A stretch of 64,000 nucleotides of DNA from a virus. Position 1 is the stretch's first letter. The number at the start of each line of letters is the position of its first letter. The DNA lies in the IMG/VR virus record IMGVR_UViG_3300027976_000033; one strand, given 5' to 3'. Under the pieces are notes generated by a model. The model saw nothing but the letters and a program-made list of their open reading frames with translations. It ran no database searches and was not told where the DNA came from. This document shows positions 6,212 through 45,512 of the stretch, one piece after another. A program made the position numbers and the translations under genes.

Positions 6212-6600
6212 TGTGGTCATTTAAAAAGAAAAATATGTTTCATGGACACGATCTCAATAAGTGGAATTATCTTGGATCGTCTGAAATAAACTTTACAGAT
6301 AATGGTATTATTACTAGACAATCTTACATTTATTATTTTGTTCATAATAAGACAGACAAAAGGTCATATCATTGCTCAAACAAATATATGAAGATGCATC
6401 AGTTTATTAGTCATTACAGTGAATTGTGGAAAATTGGTGAGACTAGTTTATTTGAAATAATTCTAGATAAGCCATCGTCATATTGTATCAAACTCGCCGC
6501 AGACGCCGGATATAAATTTGATTATGGTAATACTTGTTGGATAAGATTTCTTGCTCCGACAAAAACTACTGATAATGTAATAAAAGTGGATTTCAAATGA
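6208..6600 (+). CDS. hypothetical protein
   Basis: ORF with overlapping stop/start. Confidence 0.5.
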   Translation: MMWSFKKKNMFHGHDLNKWNYLGSSEINFTDNGIITRQSYIYYFVHNKTDKRSYHCSNKYMKMHQFISHYSELWKIGETSLFEIILDKPSSYCIKLAADAGYKFDYGNTCWIRFLAPTKTTDNVIKVDFK

Positions 6601-21060: not shown

Positions 21061-21690
21061 ATGAGCATTGAAAATATTATATTAAGTAGTTTGTTATATA
21101 ATGAAGATTACGTCAGAAAGACGATAGCATTTTTAAAGCCAGAATATTTTCATAACGATGCTGATAAAGTTCTTTATAAATTAATAGAACACTATTTCCA
21201 GAAGTACAATGCCTCTCCAACAAAGGAAGCATTGCTTCTGGACATAGATAAAGTATCTTTACCGGAACACGTTTTTAAAGAGTGTGTCGAAAAGACCAAG
21301 ACTTTAGAATATACCGAACAACAGATGGTTTGGCTTACAGATACTACAGAGAAATTCTGTCAAGACAAAGCTCTCTACAATGCGATCATGGATTCAATCA
21401 AAATTATCGATGACGATGATGACAAAAATCCATTATCTAAGGGTTCTATTCCACAAATTCTGAGTGACGCTTTAGCAGTATCGTTTGATACTGATATCGG
21501 TCATGATTATTTAGAAAATTCTGAAGAGAGATTCGAGTATTATCATTTAGCTGAAGCGAAAATACCATTCGACATTGAGCATTTTAATAATATCACTAAG
21601 GGTGGTGTTTCTAGAAAAACACTTACAATCATACTTGCTGGTTGTGTTCATCCATCAACAAAAATTAAAGTGCGAATTAGAAAAGTGTAA
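21061..21690 (+). CDS. 41: replicative helicase gp41, fragment 1: N-extein (21061-21642) plus 15-aa split-intein N half
   Basis: DnaB/gp41 N-terminal domain; ends ...KTLTIILAG|CVHPSTKIKVRIRKV* inside the Walker A loop (T4 LLAG-VNVGKS). Confidence 0.85.
   Translation: MSIENIILSSLLYNEDYVRKTIAFLKPEYFHNDADKVLYKLIEHYFQKYNASPTKEALLLDIDKVSLPEHVFKECVEKTKTLEYTEQQMVWLTDTTEKFCQDKALYNAIMDSIKIIDDDDDKNPLSKGSIPQILSDALAVSFDTDIGHDYLENSEERFEYYHLAEAKIPFDIEHFNNITKGGVSRKTLTIILAGCVHPSTKIKVRIRKV
21643..21687 (+). other. atypical split-intein N half (IntN, 15 aa)
   Basis: Cys-initiated 15-residue peptide between the extein and an in-frame stop; complemented by a 128-aa IntC downstream. Confidence 0.65.
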
Positions 21691-22309
21691 ATCCGCGCTG
21701 GTATCCAATATCAATATACGATTGCAACAAATCAGGCTTTATTCTAGTTCTATGTTTTCCATTAGTTACACATATGAAGCCAGTAAGAGCTCTGCCGCCC
21801 TTAGCACAAATAATTTTTTTTACATCTGGATCGAAAAAGGCTCCTATTTTATTTTCTCTTTGTGTTTTAGAGCCAGCAGTTCCACCCTTTGAACACATGT
21901 TTTTTCTAAAGACTGGATCGAAAGTTCCTACTTTATTTTTGGATTGTGTCACCGCCGCCTTTCTGGCGCTAGCTCTGATTGATTCTTTATTATTTTTATA
22001 TTTATCAGAATGAAATCCGATTTTGTTTTTATGACAGAACTTACCAGTGATAATTCGCTGTTTAGTTGAAAGCTTCGCACCCAACATGTGCATAGATCTT
22101 AAATCATTTGGATTTTTATATATTTTCCACAATAAGAAATGAGCAATTATGTGTTCTCTAATATTTAGATATGTTAAATTTTCTTGTAAATCGCCGCCGC
22201 CCATGTGTTTTGGAATTATGTGATGAGCATGTAATCCGCTGGCGTAGCCATATTTTTCTTTTAATGATTTTCTATTTTCACACAATGATGAATAGATTAT
22301 ATCATACAT
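21677..22309 (-). CDS. HNH homing endonuclease (free-standing, opposite strand, between the split-intein halves)
   Basis: GLHAHHIIPKHMGGGD ... NLTYLNIREHIIAH HNH motif. Confidence 0.75.
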   Translation of the reverse strand: MYDIIYSSLCENRKSLKEKYGYASGLHAHHIIPKHMGGGDLQENLTYLNIREHIIAHFLLWKIYKNPNDLRSMHMLGAKLSTKQRIITGKFCHKNKIGFHSDKYKNNKESIRASARKAAVTQSKNKVGTFDPVFRKNMCSKGGTAGSKTQRENKIGAFFDPDVKKIICAKGGRALTGFICVTNGKHRTRIKPDLLQSYIDIGYQRGFTLF

Positions 22310-22323
22310 GTTTTAATCTTTCG

Positions 22324-22331
22324 TATAAATA
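22324..22331 (+). promoter_or_regulatory. T4-type late promoter octamer TATAAATA upstream of gp41 fragment 2
   Basis: exact TATAAATA 46 nt upstream of ATG 22377. Confidence 0.4.
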
Positions 22332-22376
22332 TTATGCCAGTGCCGGCTAGTAATATTTATTATTTTGGAGTTTTTA

Positions 22377-22760
22377 ATGAATAATTGGGTAGAAAAAGAA
22401 ATAGAAATAGGTGCCGTAGATGACTTGCTTAAAGAGGGTTATGAAGTAGAGGTATATTCTCCAGATGGTTGGGTTGGCATTAATTTTTTTGTTGATAAGG
22501 GTTCATATGAAGAATATATCATTACAACCGCAAATGGATTAGAAGTCAAATGTAACGCGGATCATTTATTTAAGTCTGTTGATGATGAATGGATTACTGC
22601 ACAAGAGTTAGAATATATGCAAGATCCTGTAGAATTAGTAACGATACATGGACCATCATTAGCATTTACCATTAAGACAGATAATATAATTCCAATTGTA
22701 GACATAAATGTTAATCATAAAAATAAGCGATATTATACAAATGGTATAGAATCACACAAT
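22377..22760 (+). other. atypical split-intein C half (IntC, 128 aa, contains block B)
   Basis: contains EVKCNADHLF (block B) and terminal GIESHN followed by +1 Thr. Confidence 0.65.
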
Positions 22761-23558
22761 ACTGGCGCGGGCAAAAGTTTGGCAATGTGCCACATGGCAG
22801 CTGGCAATCTCATGGATAATAAGAGTGTCCTATATATCACGCTCGAAATGGCTGAAGAAAAGATCGCAGAAAGAATTGATGCTAATCTTCTAAATATTAC
22901 CATGGACGATTTGGATAAAACTCCAAAAGCCTACTACGATAAAATGATTGCTAAGCTAAAGTCCAGAACTATGGGCAAGCTTATCATTAAAGAATATCCA
23001 ACTTCAACAGCCCATGCAAATCACTTTCGTCATCTTCTTAATGAATTAAAAATTAAGAAGAATTTTATACCAGACATCATCTATATCGATTACATCAATC
23101 TATGCGGATCAGTCAGAATTAAGGCCGGTGCTAATGCTAACTCGTACACGATGATTAAGTCGATTGCCGAAGAACTTCGTGGACTTGCCGTTGAACACAA
23201 CGTTCCTATCATTAGTGCTACACAGGTTACTCGAGCTGGATATGGTTCAAGCGATATTGAAATTACCGATACATCTGAATGTATCTTCCAGGATGAAATG
23301 ATTGAACTGCGTGATGGTAGTTCTAAAATGATTAAAGATATTGTAGTTGGAGATCAAATTATATCTAATGATCAATATAAAACGGTTCATATGGTTCATC
23401 ATTCGAAACTCAAAGACTGTTATAAGATAAAAACATCAGCTGGCAAAGAAATAATTGTAAGCAAAGATCATGTATTTCCAACAAAGCGTGGCAGAATATC
23501 AATCGAAACTGGTTTGAGTGTTGGTGATAATCTTAATAGTAGGAACCGTGATGAGTAA
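22377..23558 (+). CDS. 41: gp41 fragment 2: 128-aa IntC (22377-22760) plus central extein (22761-23279) plus IntN of second split intein (23280-23555)
   Basis: ...NGIESHN|TGAGKSLAMCHMA completes the Walker A motif; DnaB RecA-like core; ends ...DTSE|CIFQDEM...NRDE*. Confidence 0.85.
   Translation: MNNWVEKEIEIGAVDDLLKEGYEVEVYSPDGWVGINFFVDKGSYEEYIITTANGLEVKCNADHLFKSVDDEWITAQELEYMQDPVELVTIHGPSLAFTIKTDNIIPIVDINVNHKNKRYYTNGIESHNTGAGKSLAMCHMAAGNLMDNKSVLYITLEMAEEKIAERIDANLLNITMDDLDKTPKAYYDKMIAKLKSRTMGKLIIKEYPTSTAHANHFRHLLNELKIKKNFIPDIIYIDYINLCGSVRIKAGANANSYTMIKSIAEELRGLAVEHNVPIISATQVTRAGYGSSDIEITDTSECIFQDEMIELRDGSSKMIKDIVVGDQIISNDQYKTVHMVHHSKLKDCYKIKTSAGKEIIVSKDHVFPTKRGRISIETGLSVGDNLNSRNRDE
23280..23555 (+). 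other. split-intein N half (IntN, 92 aa), gp41-1-like
   Basis: CIFQDEMIELRDGS ... KDHVFPT (block B) ... stop; same pattern as described gp41-type split IntN. Confidence 0.8.
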
Positions 23559-23817
23559 TATTTATTTAGCATGCTTAGCTAAAGCAGAGTACTTGATGGA
23601 AAATGGTTATCCAGTTGGTAAGATTGATTTGGCACAATTGACCGATCTTCTTGTTAAATTGGAAAATGAGAAAATAGAAAAGCAAACACTCTCAGATGCT
23701 GTTATAGATTATAATGATACTATTGTCGAAATCATAGAGCTTGGAGAACTGGAAACAGTCGATCTTTCTGTGTCTGGTGATAATCTTTTCTATTGTAATG
23801 ACATATTAACAAAGAAT
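23551..23817 (+). other. split-intein C half (IntC; start uncertain, 89 aa from first ATG)
   Basis: blocks F/G VDLSVSGDNLFYCNDILTKN then +1 Ser. Confidence 0.6.
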
Positions 23818-24102
23818 AGTTTTGGACTTCCCGCCACTGCAGATTTAATGTTTGCTCTAGTTACATCTGAAGAGATGGAAAAATTAAATCAAGTTATGGT
23901 GAAGCAACTTAAAAACAGATATTCAGACATATCAAAGGATAGGAGATTTTTTGTTGGACTAGATAAGAGTAGAATGAAATTTTATGATCTAGAAGATAGT
24001 GCACAACGAGTTTTAAATGACGATGTTGCTATAATGGATCAAACGCCGACTGGTAAAAGAATTAATGATGAACTTAGAGATAAAATGAAAGATTTTAAAT
24101 GA
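23551..24102 (+). CDS. 41: gp41 fragment 3: IntC (23551-23817) plus C-extein (23818-24102)
   Basis: ATG overlaps the fragment-2 stop (ATGAGTAA); ...VDLSVSGDNLFYCNDILTKN|SFGLPATADLMFAL continues T4 gp41 ...SAGLPATADFMLAV. Confidence 0.8.
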   Translation: MSNIYLACLAKAEYLMENGYPVGKIDLAQLTDLLVKLENEKIEKQTLSDAVIDYNDTIVEIIELGELETVDLSVSGDNLFYCNDILTKNSFGLPATADLMFALVTSEEMEKLNQVMVKQLKNRYSDISKDRRFFVGLDKSRMKFYDLEDSAQRVLNDDVAIMDQTPTGKRINDELRDKMKDFK

Positions 24103-37122: not shown

Positions 37123-37623
37123 ATGATGAATTTTAATGAATTTGTAATAGAACAGAAAGGTGATCACAAAGATGGAACATACATTTCTGTTAAATTGAAT
37201 AAGCAAGACTCAGCAAAGCTTGACTTTTGGGCAACTGAAAATGGAATAAAGAATCTTATAGACCCTTCAGAATATCATACCACAGTAATATATTCAAAGA
37301 AGGGCATACCAGATTCTAAAGGATATGATCTTGATCTTCCAATAGAAGCTAAAATATCCGGATGGGAAATATTTGATTCACAGGGAAGTACCAAATGTCT
37401 AGTTGGTGTATTAGACAGCAAAGAATTAGTAAAGCATCACAACAACATCATGAGCACATATAAGGGTACTTATGATTTTCCGAAATATATTCCACATATC
37501 ACACTAACATATAATAATGCAGATCGTGGCATTCCAAAAGAACTACCCGATTTTAATCTTAAGTTTGATACTAGAGATTTTCAACCCATTCGACCAGATT
37601 TTATACCGAAAAGCAAATCATAA
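37123..37623 (+). CDS. 2H phosphoesterase superfamily protein (LigT/cyclic phosphodiesterase-like)
   Basis: two H-x-T-x motifs: HTTVIY and HITLTY. Confidence 0.55.
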   Translation: MMNFNEFVIEQKGDHKDGTYISVKLNKQDSAKLDFWATENGIKNLIDPSEYHTTVIYSKKGIPDSKGYDLDLPIEAKISGWEIFDSQGSTKCLVGVLDSKELVKHHNNIMSTYKGTYDFPKYIPHITLTYNNADRGIPKELPDFNLKFDTRDFQPIRPDFIPKSKS

Positions 37624-38660
37624 TGAGAATTGAAACTGAAGAATATCTTGATTTTTCACAAGTTCTTCTTAAGCCAAAAAGATCTAAATTGACTTCTAGA
37701 CTTCAGGCTAACATTACTAGAAATTTTAAATTCCTCTATTCAAATATAGATTTTAATGACTGTACTCCGATAATTGCTGCTAATATGACTACTGTTGGAA
37801 CATTTGAAACTGCTAAAGTGTTATCAGATAATGCAATGCCAACATGCATACACAAATTTTATAACATTGATGAACTAGAAGCTTTTTTTAAAATAGATAC
37901 TAACAGAGAATTTTTCTATACTATGGGGTCGGGTCAAGAAGAATATGATAAGTATGTTACACTGATATCGAAGATTGGTTATACTCCAAACGTGTGTATC
38001 GATGTTGCAAACGGATATTCGGAAAGCTTTGTAAAATATGTGTCTAAAGTTAGAGCGTTTGTTGAAAATAATGCCACAATCATGGCTGGAAATGTTGCAA
38101 CACCAGAAATTACAGAAGAATTAATTCTGAATGGTGCCGATATTGTAAAAGCTGGAATCGGTTCAGGGGCACTTTGTACAACTCGTTTAGTTACAGGTGT
38201 TGGCATACCACAATTTTCATGTGTTGCTGAATGTGCTGATGCTGCTCATGGTGTTGGTGGTATGCTTTGTTCAGACGGCGGGATTACATGTCCGGGTGAT
38301 GTTGTAAAAGCTTTTGGTGCAGGCGCTGATTTTGTGATGGTTGGATCTGAGTTTGCTGGCCATACTGAAAATTCGGATTCTGGTAATAATGTTACAATAT
38401 ATGGTATGAGTTCATCCATGGCTCAAGAGAAACACTACACAGAAAATAAATCATACAGATCAAGTGAAGGCCGAGAAGCTGTTATAGAATTCAGAGGCGA
38501 TATACAAGACACACTAAATTATTATTTTGGTGGGCTTCGCTCTGGAATGACATATATTGGAGCTCAAAACATTAAAGAGATTCCAAAAAGAGCAACCTTT
38601 ATCAAAGTGTCTAAAATATTAAATGAGACACATCTACACAATACCGTAAGGATTAAATAA
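37623..38660 (+). CDS. guaC: GMP reductase (IMPDH/GMPR family)
   Basis: catalytic loop [11 protein letters not shown]; 345 aa, the GuaC size, without CBS insert. Confidence 0.75.
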
Positions 38661-39391
38661 TGACCGAACCAGTATCACTAGTATCGCTATCTTCACCATC
38701 AGCTGAAACTGACTGTAAAACGGCTGAAGAATTGATTGCTTATGTAGCAAGAGTAAGTGCGAAAGAAAATCAGGGAAATAAATCGACAGCACAATCTCTA
38801 ATTAATTTTTTAATTACTCATAATCATTGGTCTCCATTAGAGATGGTTAATATGACATTGGAAATTAATACTACGAGAGACATTGCACGACAATTACTTC
38901 GTCATAGATCATTTTCGTTTCAAGAATTTAGTCAGAGGTATGCTGAAGTAAATACTGATGATTTTGTTTTGAGAGAAGCGAGATTACAAGATTCAAAAAA
39001 CAGACAAAATAGTATGAAGTCGCATGATATGGGTCTACAGACTGAGTGGAACAAAAAACAACAAAGTGTTATTAGAGCTGCAACAGAAGCATATGAATGG
39101 GCAGCAGCACATAATATCGCTAAAGAACAGCGCCGCGTTGTTTTACCAGAAGGACTAACACCATCTAGAATGTATATGCAAGGCAATATACGCTCGTGGC
39201 TACACTATTGTTTATTGAGAATGGGGAATGGTACTCAATTAGAACACATAATGATAGCAAATAGAGTGTGGTTAATTCTTCATCAACATTTTCCAAACAT
39301 AACAAAAATATTTCATGAGCATCAAAGAGAAATTCAAAATATTCTCCTAGCTTATGATAATGAACAAGATGCCTATCAGAATGCAAAATAA
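38660..39391 (+). CDS. thyX: flavin-dependent thymidylate synthase ThyX
   Basis: ThyX signature RHRSFSFQEFSQRY (RHR-x7-S). Confidence 0.85.
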   Translation: MTEPVSLVSLSSPSAETDCKTAEELIAYVARVSAKENQGNKSTAQSLINFLITHNHWSPLEMVNMTLEINTTRDIARQLLRHRSFSFQEFSQRYAEVNTDDFVLREARLQDSKNRQNSMKSHDMGLQTEWNKKQQSVIRAATEAYEWAAAHNIAKEQRRVVLPEGLTPSRMYMQGNIRSWLHYCLLRMGNGTQLEHIMIANRVWLILHQHFPNITKIFHEHQREIQNILLAYDNEQDAYQNAK

Positions 39392-39659
39392 TAGATTACA
39401 TATAGTGTGCGATTGTAACACTTTAGAACATCAAATTGTATTTGATTATGATGATGACGAATATTATCTCATGGTTCATTTATCTAAAAAGTCATTTTTT
39501 AGAAGATTCATCCATGCAATCAAATATATAATAGGCTATCAATCACAAAATGGCGCATTTGATGAGGTTCTTATAGGAACATCAGATTTAGATAGAATAA
39601 TAGAGCACATGAAAAAATATAAAAATAAGGACCAACATGTCACAAATACACGTAATTAA
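39354..39659 (+). CDS. hypothetical protein
   Basis: ORF. Confidence 0.4.
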   Translation: MIMNKMPIRMQNNRLHIVCDCNTLEHQIVFDYDDDEYYLMVHLSKKSFFRRFIHAIKYIIGYQSQNGAFDEVLIGTSDLDRIIEHMKKYKNKDQHVTNTRN

Positions 39660-41253
39660 AAGAGACGGCTCAAAAGAACTCTTAGATATAGAAAAAATTC
39701 ACAAAGTATTATATTGGGCATGTGAGGATATTACTGGCGTTTCAGTATCTGAAATTGAACTGAAATCAGAAATTCAGTTTTATACCAACATAGAGACTGC
39801 GACGATTCATGAAACCATGATTCGATCTGCTGCCGAACTTATCACTGAAGACTCACCGAATTATCAATATGTTGCTGGTAGACTTATAAACTATCATCTT
39901 AGAAAACAAATCTATGGTTCACATAAAGTTCCTAATCTCTTTGAACATTACAAAAAGATAACAGATCTTGGGTATTACGATAAACAGCTAATGGATTTAT
40001 ATGATGTGGATGAGTGGGAATATTTAGATAAAATAATAGATCATTCGCGTGATGATGATATTGCATATGCCGGCATGGAACAGTTGCGCGGCAAGTATCT
40101 TGTTAAGGATAGAGCATCTAGTGAAATATTTGAGACACCACAAATAGCGTTCATGTTGATTTCAATGACTCTATTTTCTCATTATAATAAATACAATAGG
40201 ATGAAGTGGGTTAAAGATTTATATAATGCTATATCACAATTCGATATAAGTTTACCTACTCCCATTATGGCTGGCGTCAGAACTCCTGACAGACAATTCA
40301 GCTCTTGTGTATTGATTGAAAGTGGAGATTCTTTGGATTCAATTAATGCTACTTCGTCTGCTACAGTTAAATACGTATCTCAGAAAGCTGGCATTGGCCT
40401 TGGCGCAGGTCGTATCCGTGCCCTTAAATCTCGTATTAGGAACGGCGCTGCTGTGCACACTGGGGTTATTCCTTTTTATAAGCTCTTTGCTTCTTCTGTT
40501 AAATCCTGCAATCAGGGCGGAGTTCGCGGGGGGTCTGCGACACTTCACACAGTTATTTGGCATAAGGAAATAGATGATATTCTTGCTCTGAAGAGCAATA
40601 AGAAAACAGTAGAAACTAGCTGTAGAAATTTGGATTATTCCATTCAATTGTCTAGACTGTTTTATGATAGACTTATTAGTGGCGGCGATATAACACTGTT
40701 TTGTCCAAATGATGTTCCAGATTTATACGATGCGTTTTTTAAAGATCAAGACGAATTCGATAGATTGTATGTTAAGTACGAAAAATCTTATAAGATTGAA
40801 AAGACGACTGTTCCAGCGATTGAAGTATTTTCTAAACTGATGCAAGAAAGAAAAGAAACTGGTCGCATATATTTCATGAATGTGGATCATTGTAATACAC
40901 ACAGTTCATTCAAACAAGATTTAGCTCCAATTAGAATGAGCAATCTCTGTCTATCAGGAAATACTGATATTGTTATAATGAATGATAATGGTGAGATCAA
41001 AGATATTAAAATTAAAGATTCTATTGTTGGTGATAAAATATATTCCCGTGATTTAAACAAAGGCAAGGACGAATTTCGCGAAATTAAAGCTTTCGCGAAA
41101 ACCGCACAAGACGCTAGTGTTATGAAAATTACTGATGAAGAAACAGGTAAATTTATCATTTGTACACCAGAACATAAAATATACACACAAAATCGTGGAT
41201 ATGTGATGGCTGAGGATCTTCTTGAAAGCGACATTTTAAAGTTTCAGGATTAG
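39637..41253 (+). CDS. nrdA: ribonucleotide reductase alpha subunit NrdA, N-terminal fragment: N-extein (39637-40947) plus split-intein N half (40948-41250)
   Basis: ATP-cone, class I RNR core; ends ...PIRMSNL|CLSGNTDIV... (E. coli SNLCLEI site). Confidence 0.9.
   Translation: MSQIHVIKRDGSKELLDIEKIHKVLYWACEDITGVSVSEIELKSEIQFYTNIETATIHETMIRSAAELITEDSPNYQYVAGRLINYHLRKQIYGSHKVPNLFEHYKKITDLGYYDKQLMDLYDVDEWEYLDKIIDHSRDDDIAYAGMEQLRGKYLVKDRASSEIFETPQIAFMLISMTLFSHYNKYNRMKWVKDLYNAISQFDISLPTPIMAGVRTPDRQFSSCVLIESGDSLDSINATSSATVKYVSQKAGIGLGAGRIRALKSRIRNGAAVHTGVIPFYKLFASSVKSCNQGGVRGGSATLHTVIWHKEIDDILALKSNKKTVETSCRNLDYSIQLSRLFYDRLISGGDITLFCPNDVPDLYDAFFKDQDEFDRLYVKYEKSYKIEKTTVPAIEVFSKLMQERKETGRIYFMNVDHCNTHSSFKQDLAPIRMSNLCLSGNTDIVIMNDNGEIKDIKIKDSIVGDKIYSRDLNKGKDEFREIKAFAKTAQDASVMKITDEETGKFIICTPEHKIYTQNRGYVMAEDLLESDILKFQD
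40948..41250 (+). other. split-intein N half (IntN, 101 aa) in nrdA
   Basis: Cys start, block B TPEHKIYT, ends at stop. Confidence 0.8.
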
Positions 41254-41401
41254 TTGGAATATGTTCCATATTACAAATGTAAGAAACAAAAATCGTAACT
41301 GGAAAAAAATGGTTTTTTTGTAAAGACATAAAAAGCAATAGATTGTGTCATGAACATGAATTAGATATAAAATTAAACTGGAAAAAGGGTAGAATGACAT
41401 C

Positions 41402-41503
41402 ATGGGATTAAGACTAGAATATTTAACTGATGTAGAAGATGTTTATGACGTAACGGTTGATAAAAATTTAAATTTTTATGCTAATGGTATTTTAGTTCAT
41501 AAT
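41402..41503 (+). other. split-intein C half (IntC, 34 aa) in nrdA
   Basis: blocks F/G, terminal HN, +1 Cys. Confidence 0.8.
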
Positions 41504-42667
41504 TGTCAAGAAATAACATTACCAACTCATCCACTTACTAGCATCCACGATGGAGAACCATCTAAAGAGCCAGTTCAAATTAACTGGAGTGATTGGGACG
41601 CATATGAAGAATTCAAAATATCGAATTCAGATTATGTTTACAAGCGCGGAAAGGGTCAGCACACCGACACATTTGCTTATGAAGTCATAAATTATATCAA
41701 TTTTGATAGCGCTTATAGGTGTGTTTACGAATTAGCTGAGAGTGATTCTAAAGCAGAAATTGCACTATGTACATTGGGAGCAATCAATTGGGGCAAAATT
41801 AAAAAACCTGAAGATTTCATGAAGCCAGCTAGATTGTTGGTTAGAGCTTTAGATGCACTATTAGATTATCAGTCGTATCCAGTTAAAGCTGCTGAAAATG
41901 CAACCATGAATAGAAGGCCACTTGGAATTGGTATCATCAATTTTGCATATTGGATCGCTAAGAATGGTATGACATATAGTGAACCAAATTTAGAGCTCAT
42001 CCACGAATACGCCGAAGCATGGTCATATTATTTGATTAGAGCATCTGTAGAATTAGCAGAAGATTTTGGTCCATGCCCACTATCACACCAGACAAAATAT
42101 GATGACGGTATTATGCCAATTCATACATACAAAGAAGCTGTTGATGAATTAGTAAACCCAGACTATAAATTGGATTGGAATGAACTATCAGAAAGATTGA
42201 AGAAGAGCAAGATTAGAAATTCTACATTAATGGCTCTAATGCCATCAGAAACATCTTCTCAAGTTTCTAATTCTACTAATGGTATTGACCCTATCAGAGA
42301 GATAGTTTCTATTAAACAATCTAAAGATGGTGTACTAGCACAAGTTGCGCCGGAGCCAATTAAATTTAAGAACAAGTATGAAAAGATGTGGGATGCTAAA
42401 ACACCACACGGTTATATAAAAATTATGGCAGTACTTCAAAAGTTCATTGATCAATCTATCTCAACAAATACGACTTATAATCCAGAGCATTATCCAGATG
42501 AGATGCTGTCTGAGGCTGGATTGCTTACAGACATGTTGATGATGTATAAATATGGTATCAAGACAGCATATTATTTTAATACAAATGACGATGCTGGAGA
42601 GATAGAAGTCCCTGATGCCGACGTTGAAGCAATGGAAGATGAAACGTGCGACGCTTGCGCGATATAA
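41402..42667 (+). CDS. nrdA: NrdA C-terminal fragment: IntC (41402-41503) plus C-extein (41504-42667)
   Basis: MGLRLEYLTDVEDVYDVTVDKNLNFYANGILVHN|CQEITLPT; the extein restores the catalytic NLCxEIxLPT motif. Confidence 0.9.
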   Translation: MGLRLEYLTDVEDVYDVTVDKNLNFYANGILVHNCQEITLPTHPLTSIHDGEPSKEPVQINWSDWDAYEEFKISNSDYVYKRGKGQHTDTFAYEVINYINFDSAYRCVYELAESDSKAEIALCTLGAINWGKIKKPEDFMKPARLLVRALDALLDYQSYPVKAAENATMNRRPLGIGIINFAYWIAKNGMTYSEPNLELIHEYAEAWSYYLIRASVELAEDFGPCPLSHQTKYDDGIMPIHTYKEAVDELVNPDYKLDWNELSERLKKSKIRNSTLMALMPSETSSQVSNSTNGIDPIREIVSIKQSKDGVLAQVAPEPIKFKNKYEKMWDAKTPHGYIKIMAVLQKFIDQSISTNTTYNPEHYPDEMLSEAGLLTDMLMMYKYGIKTAYYFNTNDDAGEIEVPDADVEAMEDETCDACAI

Positions 42668-42680
42668 TGAGAGTAATTTA

Positions 42681-43775
42681 ATGTCTGTTTTCAATTTAAA
42701 TAATAAGACGCCACATCATAAGAGAACTATGTTCTTTGGAGAATCTGTTGATGTGGCAAGATACGATAAGTTTAAATATCCACAATTCGACAAACTAAAC
42801 GATAAGCAATTATCATTCTTTTGGAGACCTGAAGAAATAGATATATCTAAGGACTTCAAGGATTTTAAAACTTTAAATTCGCATGAACAGCATATGTTTA
42901 CTGCTAATCTAAAAAGACAAATTCTGTTAGATTCTGTTCAGGGTAGAGCGCCTTCTTTAGCATTTCTTCCTATAGTATCATTACCAGAATTGGAAAATTG
43001 GATTACTACATGGACTTTCTCTGAAACGATTCACTCTAAATCTTACACACATTTAATTAAAAATATCTATTCAGATCCGTCTAAGGTTTTTGATGAAATA
43101 AAAGAAATAACTGAAATCATCGATTGCGCTAAGGACATCAGTAAATATTATGATGATTTGATTTTGTGTAATAGTATGTTGAGTCCTCATTCAGCCCACG
43201 CTATTACTACATACGAACACAAAAAGGCTCTATGGCTTTGTCTGAATGCTGTGAATGCTCTTGAGGGAATTCGTTTCTATGTAAGCTTTGCAATTTCGTG
43301 GAACTTTGCAGAACTTAAGAAGATGGAAGGCAATGCAAAGATTATTAAATTCATTGCAAGAGATGAAAATTTACATTTAGCATCCACACAACAGATGATA
43401 AAGCTATTACCAAGTGATGATAAAGATTTCAAAAAGATAGAAAAAGAATGCCAACCAGAAGTTATTCAAATGTTTACTGATGTGGTAAATCAAGAAAGAG
43501 ATTGGGCAAAATATGTCTTTAAAGACGGTTCCATGATCGGCATCAATGAAGCACTTTCAGTAGAATATTTGGAATGGATAGCAAATAAAAGAATGCTAGC
43601 AATAGGTCTACCATCTCCATATAAAGGTGGTTCCAATCCACTCCCATGGACACAAAAATGGATTGCTGGCTCCGATGTCCAGACAGCCCCCCAACAAACT
43701 CAGATATCCAGTTATACAATCGGGGCTGTTAAAAAAGACATTCAAGATGATACATTTAAAGGATTTTCATTATAA
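42681..43775 (+). CDS. nrdB: ribonucleotide reductase beta subunit NrdB
   Basis: di-iron ferritin-like R2 protein (EGIRFYVSFA, ARDENLH); follows nrdA. Confidence 0.9.
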   Translation: MSVFNLNNKTPHHKRTMFFGESVDVARYDKFKYPQFDKLNDKQLSFFWRPEEIDISKDFKDFKTLNSHEQHMFTANLKRQILLDSVQGRAPSLAFLPIVSLPELENWITTWTFSETIHSKSYTHLIKNIYSDPSKVFDEIKEITEIIDCAKDISKYYDDLILCNSMLSPHSAHAITTYEHKKALWLCLNAVNALEGIRFYVSFAISWNFAELKKMEGNAKIIKFIARDENLHLASTQQMIKLLPSDDKDFKKIEKECQPEVIQMFTDVVNQERDWAKYVFKDGSMIGINEALSVEYLEWIANKRMLAIGLPSPYKGGSNPLPWTQKWIAGSDVQTAPQQTQISSYTIGAVKKDIQDDTFKGFSL

Positions 43776-43798
43776 TTTGGAAAATACCGGAATATAAT

Positions 43799-44536
43799 TT
43801 GATTCAAGTGGAACCAACATTACATTCATTAGAAAATTGCTGCCACTGGAACGTAGATAAACAAATAGAGTTAGTGGGTGGTGAATCTATAAGAGGCGTA
43901 TATGTATTACATTCAGACGTTCTGAATGATTATCAATATATAGATCATACAGTTTGGAAATTTGGAAACTGTGTTGTAGATATAACACCATTCGAAGATA
44001 ATCGACAATATAATTGCTTTTATCCGATTAACATACATTTTAAAAATGTATATGGAATAGAAATTTATGATATAATAAATAATTGTAGTTTCATGAATAA
44101 GGATACTGTAATGTCGTATTATGTCTATGGATTATTAGACCCAATAACAAAACATGTGTTTTATGTTGGAAATGGTAAAGGTGATAGATCTGAATCACAT
44201 TTTTCAGAACAAACGATTAAAAAATATAAATTTAGAAAAGATAAAAATATTCATGATAGAAAAATGGATAAAATTATCTCTCTAAGTTCTAAAGGTTTAG
44301 AACCAATTGTAATTTATTACGCAGAAAATATTGAGAATGAAACAGTAGCATATCAGTACGAAGAAAAGATAATAAGAAAATTCGGAAGAAGAGATATAGA
44401 TGACGGTGGAATATTATTAAATATCTGTCTAGGTTCAAATCCACCCAATCACAGCGGAAAAACATATTCTGAAATTATGGCTCCTAAAGCTACTATTAAA
44501 CTAAAAGAAAGAAAATTACCATATGAAGTGGCATGA
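43799..44536 (+). CDS. GIY-YIG homing endonuclease-like protein with about 100-aa N-terminal extension
   Basis: YVYGLLDPITKHVFYVGNGKGDRSESHF GIY-YIG core located centrally in the protein. Confidence 0.55.
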   Translation: MIQVEPTLHSLENCCHWNVDKQIELVGGESIRGVYVLHSDVLNDYQYIDHTVWKFGNCVVDITPFEDNRQYNCFYPINIHFKNVYGIEIYDIINNCSFMNKDTVMSYYVYGLLDPITKHVFYVGNGKGDRSESHFSEQTIKKYKFRKDKNIHDRKMDKIISLSSKGLEPIVIYYAENIENETVAYQYEEKIIRKFGRRDIDDGGILLNICLGSNPPNHSGKTYSEIMAPKATIKLKERKLPYEVA

Positions 44537-44710: not shown

Positions 44711-45130
44711 ATGAATTGGATTTACGAAGGCGTCGAGTTTGAGAATGATGGAGAATATTATGGATTTATCTATTTAATAGAAAACATAACCAGTGGTAAG
44801 AAATATATCGGAAGAAAGTTTCTAACTAAAGCTGGATATAAAACCGTCAAAAAGAAAAGAAAAAAAATTAGAGTAGAATCCGATTGGAAAGATTACTACG
44901 GCTCGTCGCTGTCATTAAAAAAAGACATTGATGAACTTGGGGTCGAAAATTTTAAAAGAACGATTTTAAAGCTATGCAAATCTAGAGGTGAATGTAATTA
45001 CCAAGAAGCAAAAATGATTTTTGAAGCTGATGCTGTTATTGATGATAATTACTATAATAACTGGGTTTCGGCAAAAGTACATCGAGGGCATGTATTAGCT
45101 TTAGTTTTTAATAGTGCGGAGAATTTATGA
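44711..45130 (+). CDS. GIY-YIG homing endonuclease (Seg-like)
   Basis: GFIYLIENITSGKKYIGRK = GIY-x10-YIG-x-R near N-terminus. Confidence 0.7.
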   Translation: MNWIYEGVEFENDGEYYGFIYLIENITSGKKYIGRKFLTKAGYKTVKKKRKKIRVESDWKDYYGSSLSLKKDIDELGVENFKRTILKLCKSRGECNYQEAKMIFEADAVIDDNYYNNWVSAKVHRGHVLALVFNSAENL

Positions 45131-45512
45131 CGTGGGTAAAATATTAGAACATAAGCATTTGATTATTACAGGAAGAATTAACAATCCACCGCGAGATACG
45201 GTATATATAGATATGTGGATGAAAAAACTTGTTAATTCTATTGGTATGAAAATATTAATGGGGCCGTATTCAGTTTATTCTAAAATAGCCGGTAATCGAG
45301 GACTTACATCAGTAACGATCATAGAAACATCACATATCGCACTCCATGTCTGGGATGAAGAAGAACCTGGAAAGCTCCAACTTGATGTATATTCATGCAG
45401 CACATTGGACGTTGATGTAGTATTGAAAGCAATAGACGAATTTGAGCCGCAGAACATGAATTACTATCTGATCGATAGAGATCAAGAACTAAAATTAATA
45501 GCATCACAATAA
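45114..45512 (+). CDS. pyruvoyl-dependent S-adenosylmethionine decarboxylase (SpeH-type small proenzyme)
   Basis: LTSVTIIETSHIALHVWDEEEPGKLQLDVYSCS matches the AdoMetDC class 1 processing site (E-S-H). Confidence 0.65.
   Translation: MRRIYDVGKILEHKHLIITGRINNPPRDTVYIDMWMKKLVNSIGMKILMGPYSVYSKIAGNRGLTSVTIIETSHIALHVWDEEEPGKLQLDVYSCSTLDVDVVLKAIDEFEPQNMNYYLIDRDQELKLIASQ

Follow-up and report, generated by a model that had tools for sequence, protein, structure and literature searches.

Organization of the nrdA locus

The nrdA gene of a T4-like phage, carried on the 64,000-nucleotide stretch of viral DNA analysed here (IMG/VR record IMGVR_UViG_3300027976_000033, called the window below), raises a double question: how can a gene for the alpha subunit of class Ia ribonucleotide reductase (RNR) still yield an enzyme when it is broken at the catalytic cysteine, and what is the short DNA that lies between its two pieces? 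Read directly from the window, nrdA consists of two separate open reading frames (ORFs), both on the + strand (Table 1). The two halves of an intein, IntN and IntC, lie on these two genes, each fused to one of the flanking parts of the host protein (exteins), and the break falls at the canonical position of endonuclease insertion, between intein blocks B and F. The locus is very probably a naturally split intein in a class Ia RNR alpha gene, caught just after a free-standing gene for a homing endonuclease was deleted. A first-pass annotation had already proposed that a split intein divides nrdA at the catalytic NLC site; its coordinates turned out to be correct to the base, and matches to the intein families of Pfam and NCBIfam, as well as an alignment with Escherichia coli NrdA, agree with it.

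The spacer has a GC content of 26%, compared with 36% for the whole window. It contains 7, 5 and 1 stop codons in its three frames, an in-frame TAG at 41390 being the last before the IntC ATG, and the nrdA-N and nrdA-C ORFs occupy different reading frames. No read-through or single frameshift can therefore yield a contiguous intein, and this candidate was excluded.

Table 1. Features of the nrdA-nrdB region and their positions in the window
Feature	Position	Strand	Description
nrdA-N ORF	39637..41253	+	538 amino acids (aa), N-extein plus IntN; TAG stop at 41251-41253
nrdA N-extein	39637..40947	+	437 aa, ends ..RMSNL; ATP-cone, all-alpha domain, first half of barrel
IntN	40948..41250 (with TAG, to 41253)	+	101 aa, CLSGNT...KFQD; Cys1, block B T73-P-E-H76 (TPEHKIYT)
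Spacer, decayed homing-endonuclease locus	41254..41401	+	exactly 148 bp, no ORF left
Retained start of endonuclease 5' untranslated region (UTR)	41254..41264	+	TTGGAATATGT, first 11 nt after the stop; includes the AATATGT microhomology
3' remnant of GIY-YIG ORF	41265..41411	+	..VPYYKCKKQK / ..IVTGKKWFFCKDIKSNRLCHEHELDIKLNWKKGRMTSWD*; overlaps IntC start by 10 nt
Candidate Shine-Dalgarno sequence of IntC gene (putative function)	41383..41389	+	AAAGGGT, ends 12 nt before ATG
nrdA-C ORF	41402..42667	+	34-aa IntC plus C-extein; ATG at 41402
IntC	41402..41503	+	34 aa, MGLRLEYLTDVEDVYDVTVDKNLNFYANGILVHN, blocks F and G, terminal His-Asn (..NGILVHN), then CQEITLPT
nrdA C-extein	41504..42667	+	387 aa plus stop, starts CQEITLPT
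nrdB, small subunit	42615..43775	+	PF00268; overlaps the end of nrdA-C
LEM-3-like GIY-YIG gene after nrdB	43808..44536		ORF; includes most of 43779..44305

The intein and the enzyme that it interrupts

Both halves of the intein are recognized by profile searches. The Pfam Intein_splicing family (PF14890) is matched at its positions 2-92 in IntN and 127-155 of 155 in IntC; once the halves are joined the match reaches 49 bits, the gathering score being 35.8. With the NCBIfam model intein_Nterm (TIGR01445) the native fragment stands exactly at the cut-off (24.5 bits for both), the joined intein reaching 29.1 bits, while intein_Cterm (TIGR01443) gives 38.7 bits for a cut-off of 15.6. IntC ends with ..VYDVTVDKNLNFYANGILVHN|C, that is, with the terminal His-Asn pair followed by Cys as the +1 nucleophile. 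The closest solved relatives by sequence are the split inteins NrdJ-1 (8ubs, E 5e-12) and gp41-1 (6qaz, E 9e-6); this similarity indirectly favours a HINT fold for the joined halves.

The exteins present the domain composition of a class Ia NrdA, with an ATP-cone, an all-alpha domain and a ten-stranded barrel identified through Pfam domains; the N-extein matches PF03477, PF00317 and PF02867, the last at positions 1-212. Between them the two fragments cover positions 3-441 and 453-760 of the 761 positions of NCBIfam NF006578. When spliced in silico they form an 824-aa NrdA, of which residues 4-453 align with residues 5-454 of 2r1r (E ~1e-266), without a gap at the junction. In this alignment the last residue of the N-extein is the equivalent of L438 of E. 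coli NrdA and the +1 Cys that of C439, the thiyl-radical cysteine. The Asn-x-Cys-x-Glu motif of the finger loop (SNLCQE) is regenerated only by splicing.

Directly after the catalytic finger loop, the C-extein has an insertion of about 63 aa (GEPSKEPVQINWSDWDAYEEFK...ELAESDSK; residues ~18-80, window ~41555..41743). It is found neither in E. coli NrdA nor in the closest solved structures, and one more distant relative of the locus, contig L005 (see below), appears to have it.

The spacer as an endonuclease-gene remnant

The N-extein/IntN peptide, used to scan IMG/VR, retrieved 80 loci. Three of these contigs (L002, L003 and L004) and a fourth distinct one from a metagenome scan (L090, Ga0105055) are close siblings of the window, with 97-99.5% identity across the aligned blocks of the four metagenomic contigs. 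For L002, L003 and L004 the identity is 97.9-99.6% in every block except one of 354 bp, which ends L003 (95.5%). The IntN and IntC of these siblings are 100% identical to those of the window, and the C fragment is 99% identical. The siblings differ in what separates the halves: in L002, L003 and L004 the IntN stop and the IntC ATG stand 763 bp apart, as against 148 bp in the window, and the gap contains an intact ORF for a 242-aa GIY-YIG protein (PF01541, E 1.4e-10) that overlaps the start of IntC by 10 nt. An intact GIY-YIG endonuclease ORF between the halves is present in L002, L003, L004 and L090, and absent from the window. Upstream of the sibling gene, the 5' UTR of L002 can fold into a 12-bp hairpin enclosing the T4 late-promoter motif TATAAATA, the Shine-Dalgarno sequence and the AUG (z = -2.8), an arrangement also found across the family.

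Aligning the two alleles accounts for the whole spacer. The larger of two deletions in the window removed 599 bp between copies of the heptamer AATATGT (positions 6461-6467 and 7060-7066 in L002; 41258..41264 in the window). The upstream copy in L002 forms the 5' arm of the UTR hairpin. This deletion took away the hairpin, the start codon and the whole catalytic domain, the PF01541 match (residues 2-88 of the L002 protein) falling entirely inside it. The smaller deletion, 16 bp long (GAACAACTTTCAAAAA in L002), lies between direct CAAAAA repeats (41287..41292 in the window) and frameshifts what is left. The spacer otherwise equals the first 11 nt of the 5' UTR joined to the last ~130 nt of the endonuclease ORF, a frameshifted stretch of coding sequence devoid of a start codon, in which there are 0 substitutions relative to L002. 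By this alignment the spacer is a pseudogene remnant of a homing-endonuclease gene. The annotation had called it gene-free, which holds insofar as no ORF remains in it; it is nonetheless the 3' remnant of a gene and not plain non-coding DNA. A search for endonuclease remnants in the spacer had been recommended at that stage, and the alignment to the siblings supplied one in the ~130-nt GIY-YIG segment. The accompanying suggestion, that the locus stands at the stage that follows loss of a homing endonuclease, is borne out: the siblings hold the whole gene, and the spacer is its 3' end, minus the two microhomology-flanked deletions.

The opposite course of events, insertion of an endonuclease gene into an ancestor resembling the window, was also considered. 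It was rejected because the coding sequence left in the remnant corresponds to the conserved C-terminal part of the protein, and because the frameshifting 16-bp gap lies in it. The sibling endonuclease is homologous over its full length to that of contig L006 (50% identity) and to those of about 60 further loci (34-40%). Given this full-length homology of the intact protein and the frameshifted state of the remnant, the change was a deletion.

Reality and distribution of the endonuclease-less allele

As the window's assembly is probably metagenomic, and as alleles with and without the endonuclease gene come from a sample series with adjacent JGI identifiers, one could suspect that the stop codon, the spacer or the deletion arose in sequencing or assembly and that the true genome has a contiguous intein or an intact endonuclease gene. 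An exact-protein look-up of both NrdA fragments, however, retrieved five other contigs, 100% identical to the window and with the identical 148-bp spacer, from five assembly records made with different pipelines (ENA ERZ27247431 and ERZ27247429; JGI 3300032462 and 3300007523; Logan SRR5468154). The repeats at the deletion junctions are just 6-7 nt long, far below the k-mer sizes of assemblers; stops occur in all frames; and the end of IntN is homologous to that in relatives that have the endonuclease gene. The recurrence of the spacer in several assemblies and the shortness of the repeats thus make an assembly artefact hardly credible. The adjacent sample identifiers suggest that both alleles come from one environment.

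Searches for further copies gave the following. An exact search of IMG/VR for the 599-bp deletion junction returned no match, and a metagenome pattern scan allowing either allele of the 16-bp indel found only two contigs, both of them endonuclease-positive. Megablast of the nrdA locus against the phage collection gave no match, so there is no close cultured relative in that collection.

A second endonuclease-less locus was found at a greater distance. L005 is 72% identical to the window over the N-extein/IntN query region and has split intein halves separated by a 69-bp spacer, which aligns to the same 3' end of the endonuclease gene (..C-DLKANRLCHEKDLD.. compared with ..CKDIKSNRLCHEHELD..). 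Its breakpoints differ from those of the window, and there is an extra gap of 20 nt. From this difference in breakpoints, the alignment indicates that L005 is a case of independent loss of the same endonuclease gene.

The intein family and its conservation

In all, 92 records were scanned, and 75 loci (74 fetched loci plus the window) were classified for arrangement. In 64 loci the intein is split and accompanied by a 223-247-aa GIY-YIG gene of one family; a single split locus, that of Yersinia phage TG1, has an HNH gene instead. Three split loci, representing two lineages, are endonuclease-less: L005, and the window together with its duplicate L087. The remaining seven have a contiguous mini-intein with a linker of about 10 aa at the split position. 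The position of the split is identical in the 68 split relatives and coincides with that of the linker in the 7 contiguous ones. The search for NrdA split-intein homologs that the annotation had advised thus turned up a split gene with an intervening endonuclease gene in 65 of the 75 classified loci.

Among the contiguous mini-inteins, the linker of L048 (1959..1993; ..ELVIDGIIQKKKVLKIEYL..) has a DNA sequence that resembles the endonuclease flanks of the split relatives L013 and L015. The match extends over ~30 nt only and involves the beginning of the endonuclease 5' UTR together with the ..CAGGAGAAAAAAATG.. ribosome-binding site and IntC start. This resemblance hints that a split intein can re-fuse in frame after deletion of the endonuclease gene.

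The residues needed for splicing are strongly conserved. Cys1 and the TP[ED]H motif are invariant in 42 of 42 distinct family sequences, and H-N|C in all 41 full-length ones, the 42nd sequence (TG1) having been recovered for IntN only. In the 41 distinct full-length sequences, variation in block F (V-[YF]-D-[VI]-T-V) is conservative, and block G before the His-Asn, with the consensus N-F-[FY]-A-N-x-[IV]-L-[VI], has few variable positions. Comparisons of the window, L005 and L007 gave ratios of nonsynonymous to synonymous substitution rates (dN/dS) of 0.14-0.18 for IntN plus IntC, not far from the 0.07 of the neighbouring extein, values that are approximate since synonymous sites are near saturation.

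These figures bear on the notion that the locus is a decaying pseudogene, which makes no functional NrdA and whose two ORFs are both on their way to being lost. Similar fractured nrdA genes in Campylobacter phages are annotated as pseudogenes, the literature describes them as degenerating (PMC3653736), and the neighbouring endonuclease gene has clearly decayed. Both nrdA ORFs, however, are full length, with all catalytic residues of the intein and of the reductase intact; diverged siblings encode proteins with full or 99% identity; dN/dS is low, at ~0.15 in the intein and 0.07 in the extein beside it; an intact nrdB overlaps nrdA-C; and more than 60 related loci share the architecture. Decay of nrdA itself is thus improbable.

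A proposed route from two ORFs to one enzyme

With nrdA taken as a working gene, the following route to the enzyme can be proposed. The nrdA-N ORF, the spacer, nrdA-C and nrdB would be transcribed together. Translation of the first ORF would yield the 437-aa N-extein joined to the 101-aa IntN, ending at the TAG at 41251, and translation of the second, from its own start at the ATG at 41402, the 34-aa IntC followed by the 387-aa C-extein. The ribosome-binding region of the IntC gene would be made up of what were formerly the last codons of the endonuclease gene. IntN and IntC would associate into a HINT domain, after which a thioester formed at Cys1 would pass to the +1 Cys, cyclisation of the terminal Asn would follow, and an S-to-N shift would leave the native bond ..RMSNL-CQEITLPT.. 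in an 824-aa NrdA (predicted junction peptide ..RMSNLCQEITLPT..). Because the break falls within the finger loop and the radical cysteine itself serves as the +1 nucleophile, NrdA would have no activity before splicing.

Splicing of this intein is what we infer from the conserved residues, together with experiments on the related inteins NrdA-2 and NrdJ-1. NrdA-2, from GOS, occupies the same site with native exteins SNL/CNE; its splicing in cis reached 75-98%, and it was found to splice in trans as well (Pinto et al. 2020, PMC7090010 supplement).

Ligation might be thought dispensable. The NrdA-a and NrdA-b fragments of Aeromonas phage Aeh1 are active together without being joined (PMC3045599; PMC2677866), and the halves of split inteins bind each other tightly, so that here too the NrdA fragments might assemble non-covalently, the intein halves acting only as a dimerisation handle. 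Against this, the break lies inside the finger loop (L438/C439), where a residual 135-aa HINT domain should block the active site. Docking alone would not need Cys1, TxxH, His-Asn and Cys+1, all of which are conserved, and the related NrdA-2 does splice. The Aeh1 arrangement also involves no intein, and both window fragments carry an intein half. Assembly without splicing is very improbable on these grounds.

The history that led to the present allele, as the comparison shows, begins with an ancestor in which the 242-aa GIY-YIG gene, with a 5' UTR carrying the hairpin and late promoter, stood between the halves. A 599-bp deletion between the AATATGT heptamers and a 16-bp slippage deletion between the CAAAAA repeats then removed all but about 130 nt of its 3' end, which probably survive as the carrier of the translation-initiation region of IntC.

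Signals and repeats in the spacer

The candidate Shine-Dalgarno sequence of the IntC gene was formerly within the endonuclease coding sequence and is unchanged in the endonuclease-positive siblings; in relatives, GGAG, GAGG or AGGA stands 7-9 nt upstream of the IntC ATG. Other signals were looked for as follows. A scan for sigma-70-like promoters gave 25 matches where 22.8 were expected, which is chance level. The motif TATAAATA occurs 0 times in the spacer and 10 times in the window, for an expected 9.3. Folding of the spacer RNA is no better than that of shuffled sequences (z = -0.05), and a terminator scan from nrdA-N to nrdB found no terminator-like site. The annotation had anticipated a ribosome-binding site in the spacer and possibly a promoter. 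The former is plausible, if poorly spaced; the latter is not supported, sigma-70 matches being at chance level, TATAAATA absent and the sibling hairpin deleted.

The same annotation had remarked on two copies of an 11-mer in the spacer, and both were found: AACTGGAAAAA occurs at 41297 and 41376 and has no other copy in the window. An exact repeat of at least 11 nt appeared in 2.3% of shuffles of the spacer. In the endonuclease gene both copies are coding, within ..VTGKKW.. and ..LNWKKG.., and their DNA is not conserved in L005 or L006. As inherited codons that are unconserved in these two relatives, they are best read as coding sequence passed down from the endonuclease gene and not as regulatory repeats.

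It could still be argued that the remnant has been kept because, beyond serving as the ribosome-binding region of IntC, it acquired a new role, for instance as an internal promoter or small RNA. The independent deletions in the window and in L005 both spare at least the last 50 nt before the IntC ATG, one sigma-70-like match (41345..41373) fits at 9/12 positions, and the 11-mer repeat is nominally unusual at 2.3% of shuffles. That match belongs, however, to a set at chance level, the spacer has neither TATAAATA nor a fold better than random (z = -0.05), the 11-mers are inherited codons that neither L005 nor L006 kept, and as no substitution has accumulated after the deletion, neutral persistence suffices to explain the remnant. 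A new function is accordingly unlikely.

Four points weigh against a split intein that works and has recently lost its endonuclease gene. The SD-like AAGGG is 12 nt from the IntC ATG, whereas the majority of genes in the phage have a spacing of 5-8 nt, which leaves room for doubt about how much C fragment is made. AlphaFold2, run on the joined intein as a single sequence without an alignment, returned a pLDDT of 44.7, too low for the model to be informative. Divergence since the deletion is about zero, so the dN/dS values do not reflect selection after loss of the endonuclease. Lastly, some of the five assemblies that share the spacer may come from overlapping read sets.

Relation to other split genes and inteins

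Arrangements of this kind are already known, and the concept is left unchanged by the present case. Dassa et al. (2009; PMC2677866) described seven NrdA "fractured genes" (NrdA-1 to -7), in which the intein is inserted at the same point and its halves flank a free-standing endonuclease gene; in such genes a hairpin with a late promoter precedes the endonuclease gene and sequesters its ribosome-binding site, and the 3' end of the endonuclease gene overlaps the IntC gene. In their scheme a gp41-7 locus without an endonuclease gene was placed at "step III", towards dispersed split inteins such as DnaE. The window is a step-III member of this class. With NrdA-1 to -7 it has in common the class I RNR alpha host gene of T4-like or cyanophage-like phages, the SNL|C site, the split at the endonuclease-insertion position and the adjacent, co-oriented genes, and its siblings match them further in the free-standing GIY-YIG gene, the 5' hairpin with TATAAATA and the 3' overlap with the start of IntC. 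Compared by site and exteins with NrdA-2, the window lacks the endonuclease gene and the hairpin and has CQE in place of CNE. As in gp41-7, neighbouring genes carry the split halves and no endonuclease gene is left. The host gene of the latter is gp41, however, and its 5' hairpin is reported to be retained upstream of the C gene, whereas the window retains the 3' coding end; in addition, the deletion junctions in the window are defined against endonuclease-positive siblings.

What is new is thus step III in an NrdA gene, with occupied and decayed alleles at 97-99.5% identity, both deletion junctions defined and microhomology-flanked, the 3' end kept instead of the 5' hairpin, and a second, independent loss. 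Endonuclease-gene loss by a fractured gene is presumed to be the path towards split inteins like cyanobacterial DnaE; it had been inferred from the single locus gp41-7 and is here recorded at the level of the base. Questions about the homing cycle, namely whether the remnant allele is cleaved, whether it can be re-invaded and whether the remnant is needed in translation, become directly testable. In addition, a compact split intein (101 + 34 aa, native Cys+1) joins a family used as protein-ligation tools.

Cultured myoviruses with nrdA broken at a homologous intein are Yersinia phage vB_YenM_TG1 (KP202158) and the Campylobacter CPt10 group, with 37-43% identity in IntN. In TG1 the intervening gene is of the HNH and not the GIY-YIG type; in CPt10 there are two intervening ORFs and nrdA is annotated as a pseudogene. 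Neither is endonuclease-less. The CPt10 locus (L092; NC_027996.1, 117773..121840) has a homologous IntN and an annotation as a disrupted pseudogene, and by analogy its nrdA may be a functional fractured gene instead. This serves as a warning for annotation: such nrdA loci are probably not pseudogenes.

Aeromonas phage Aeh1 (Friedrich et al. 2007; Crona et al. 2011, PMC3045599) also has a T4-like nrdA cut in two, by the free-standing mobE gene, which is regulated by a hairpin and late promoter. In contrast to the window it has no intein, its fragments assemble non-covalently, the break is elsewhere in the gene and the endonuclease gene persists. NrdJ-1 and gp41-1 are, like the intein of the window, members of the class of fast split inteins derived from phages (IntN 88-105 aa, IntC 35-40 aa); they differ in host protein or site, that of NrdJ-1 being one residue further C-terminal, and their sequences are distinct. 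The cyanobacterial DnaE inteins (Ssp, Npu) are likewise naturally split, have no associated endonuclease and splice in trans. Their halves are far apart in the genome ("step IV" in the model of Dassa et al.), whereas those of the window are 148 bp apart and probably co-transcribed.

Two haplotypes and neighbouring endonuclease genes

The difference between the alleles is not confined to the spacer. The window segment 43779..44305 (527 bp) is absent from 4 of the 4 endonuclease-positive contigs (L002, L003, L004 and L090). Of the GIY-YIG gene that follows nrdB, this deletion, between ATT[A/G]TAATTT repeats, leaves only ~77 codons at the 3' end; the gene is whole in the window and in three other endonuclease-negative contigs long enough to tell. 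The intein endonuclease gene and the post-nrdB gene, 2.4 kb apart, thus show reciprocal decay and define two haplotypes. A third microhomology-flanked indel separates the haplotypes just upstream of nrdA, where 139 bp of the window (39438..39576), flanked by the 8-nt repeat GAACATCA and lying within the hypothetical ORF 39354..39659, are missing from L002, L003 and L090.

It is conceivable, though we regard it as doubtful, that imprecise deletion gives a stable, selected split allele that is resistant to homing, and that the two neighbouring endonuclease genes decay in a mutually exclusive manner. If this were true, the retained ~130 nt would serve as the translation-initiation region of IntC, the original homing site would have been destroyed, making the allele immune to re-invasion by the endonuclease circulating in the siblings, and the reciprocal pattern would mark co-existing haplotypes whose neighbouring homing endonucleases exclude or replace each other.

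Other features of the window

A gp41-like helicase gene is broken as well (21061..22365). A first ORF, 21061..21690 on the + strand, ends with ..IILAG|CVHPSTKIKVRIRKV*, which looks like an IntN of about 15 aa within the Walker A loop; an HNH-like ORF (21677..22309) lies on the - strand between the helicase pieces, and the next ORF, 22365..23558 on the + strand, begins with ~131 aa ending in ..NGIESHN|TGAGKS. When joined, the halves match the split intein "VidaL", whose structure is solved and whose IntN is ultra-short (6vgv, E 3.7e-11). From these matches, the Walker A element appears to be an atypical split intein whose endonuclease gene is still present.

A second intein is found in the same helicase (23260..24102). 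Its N piece, ..DTSE|CIFQDEMIELRDG...NSRNRDE*, has Pfam Intein_splicing and Hint matches, and the ORF that follows (23518/23551..24102), which overlaps the stop codon of the N piece, includes ..LSVSGDNLFYCNDILTKN|SFGLPATADL. The pieces are not separated by an endonuclease gene; the penultimate residue is Lys and not His, and ~55 extra residues precede the IntC-like part. This may be an endonuclease-less split intein or a frameshifted contiguous one.

In the nucleotide-metabolism cluster, ORF 37123..37623 matches the Acb1 anti-CBASS phosphodiesterase family (PF23474, E 1e-25) and adjoins genes resembling IMPDH/GMP reductase (37623..38660) and ThyX (38660..39391). Further along, a free-standing SegE-like GIY-YIG gene (44711..45130; PF19835, E 2e-32) is followed by an S-adenosylmethionine-decarboxylase-like ORF (45114..45512; PF02675).

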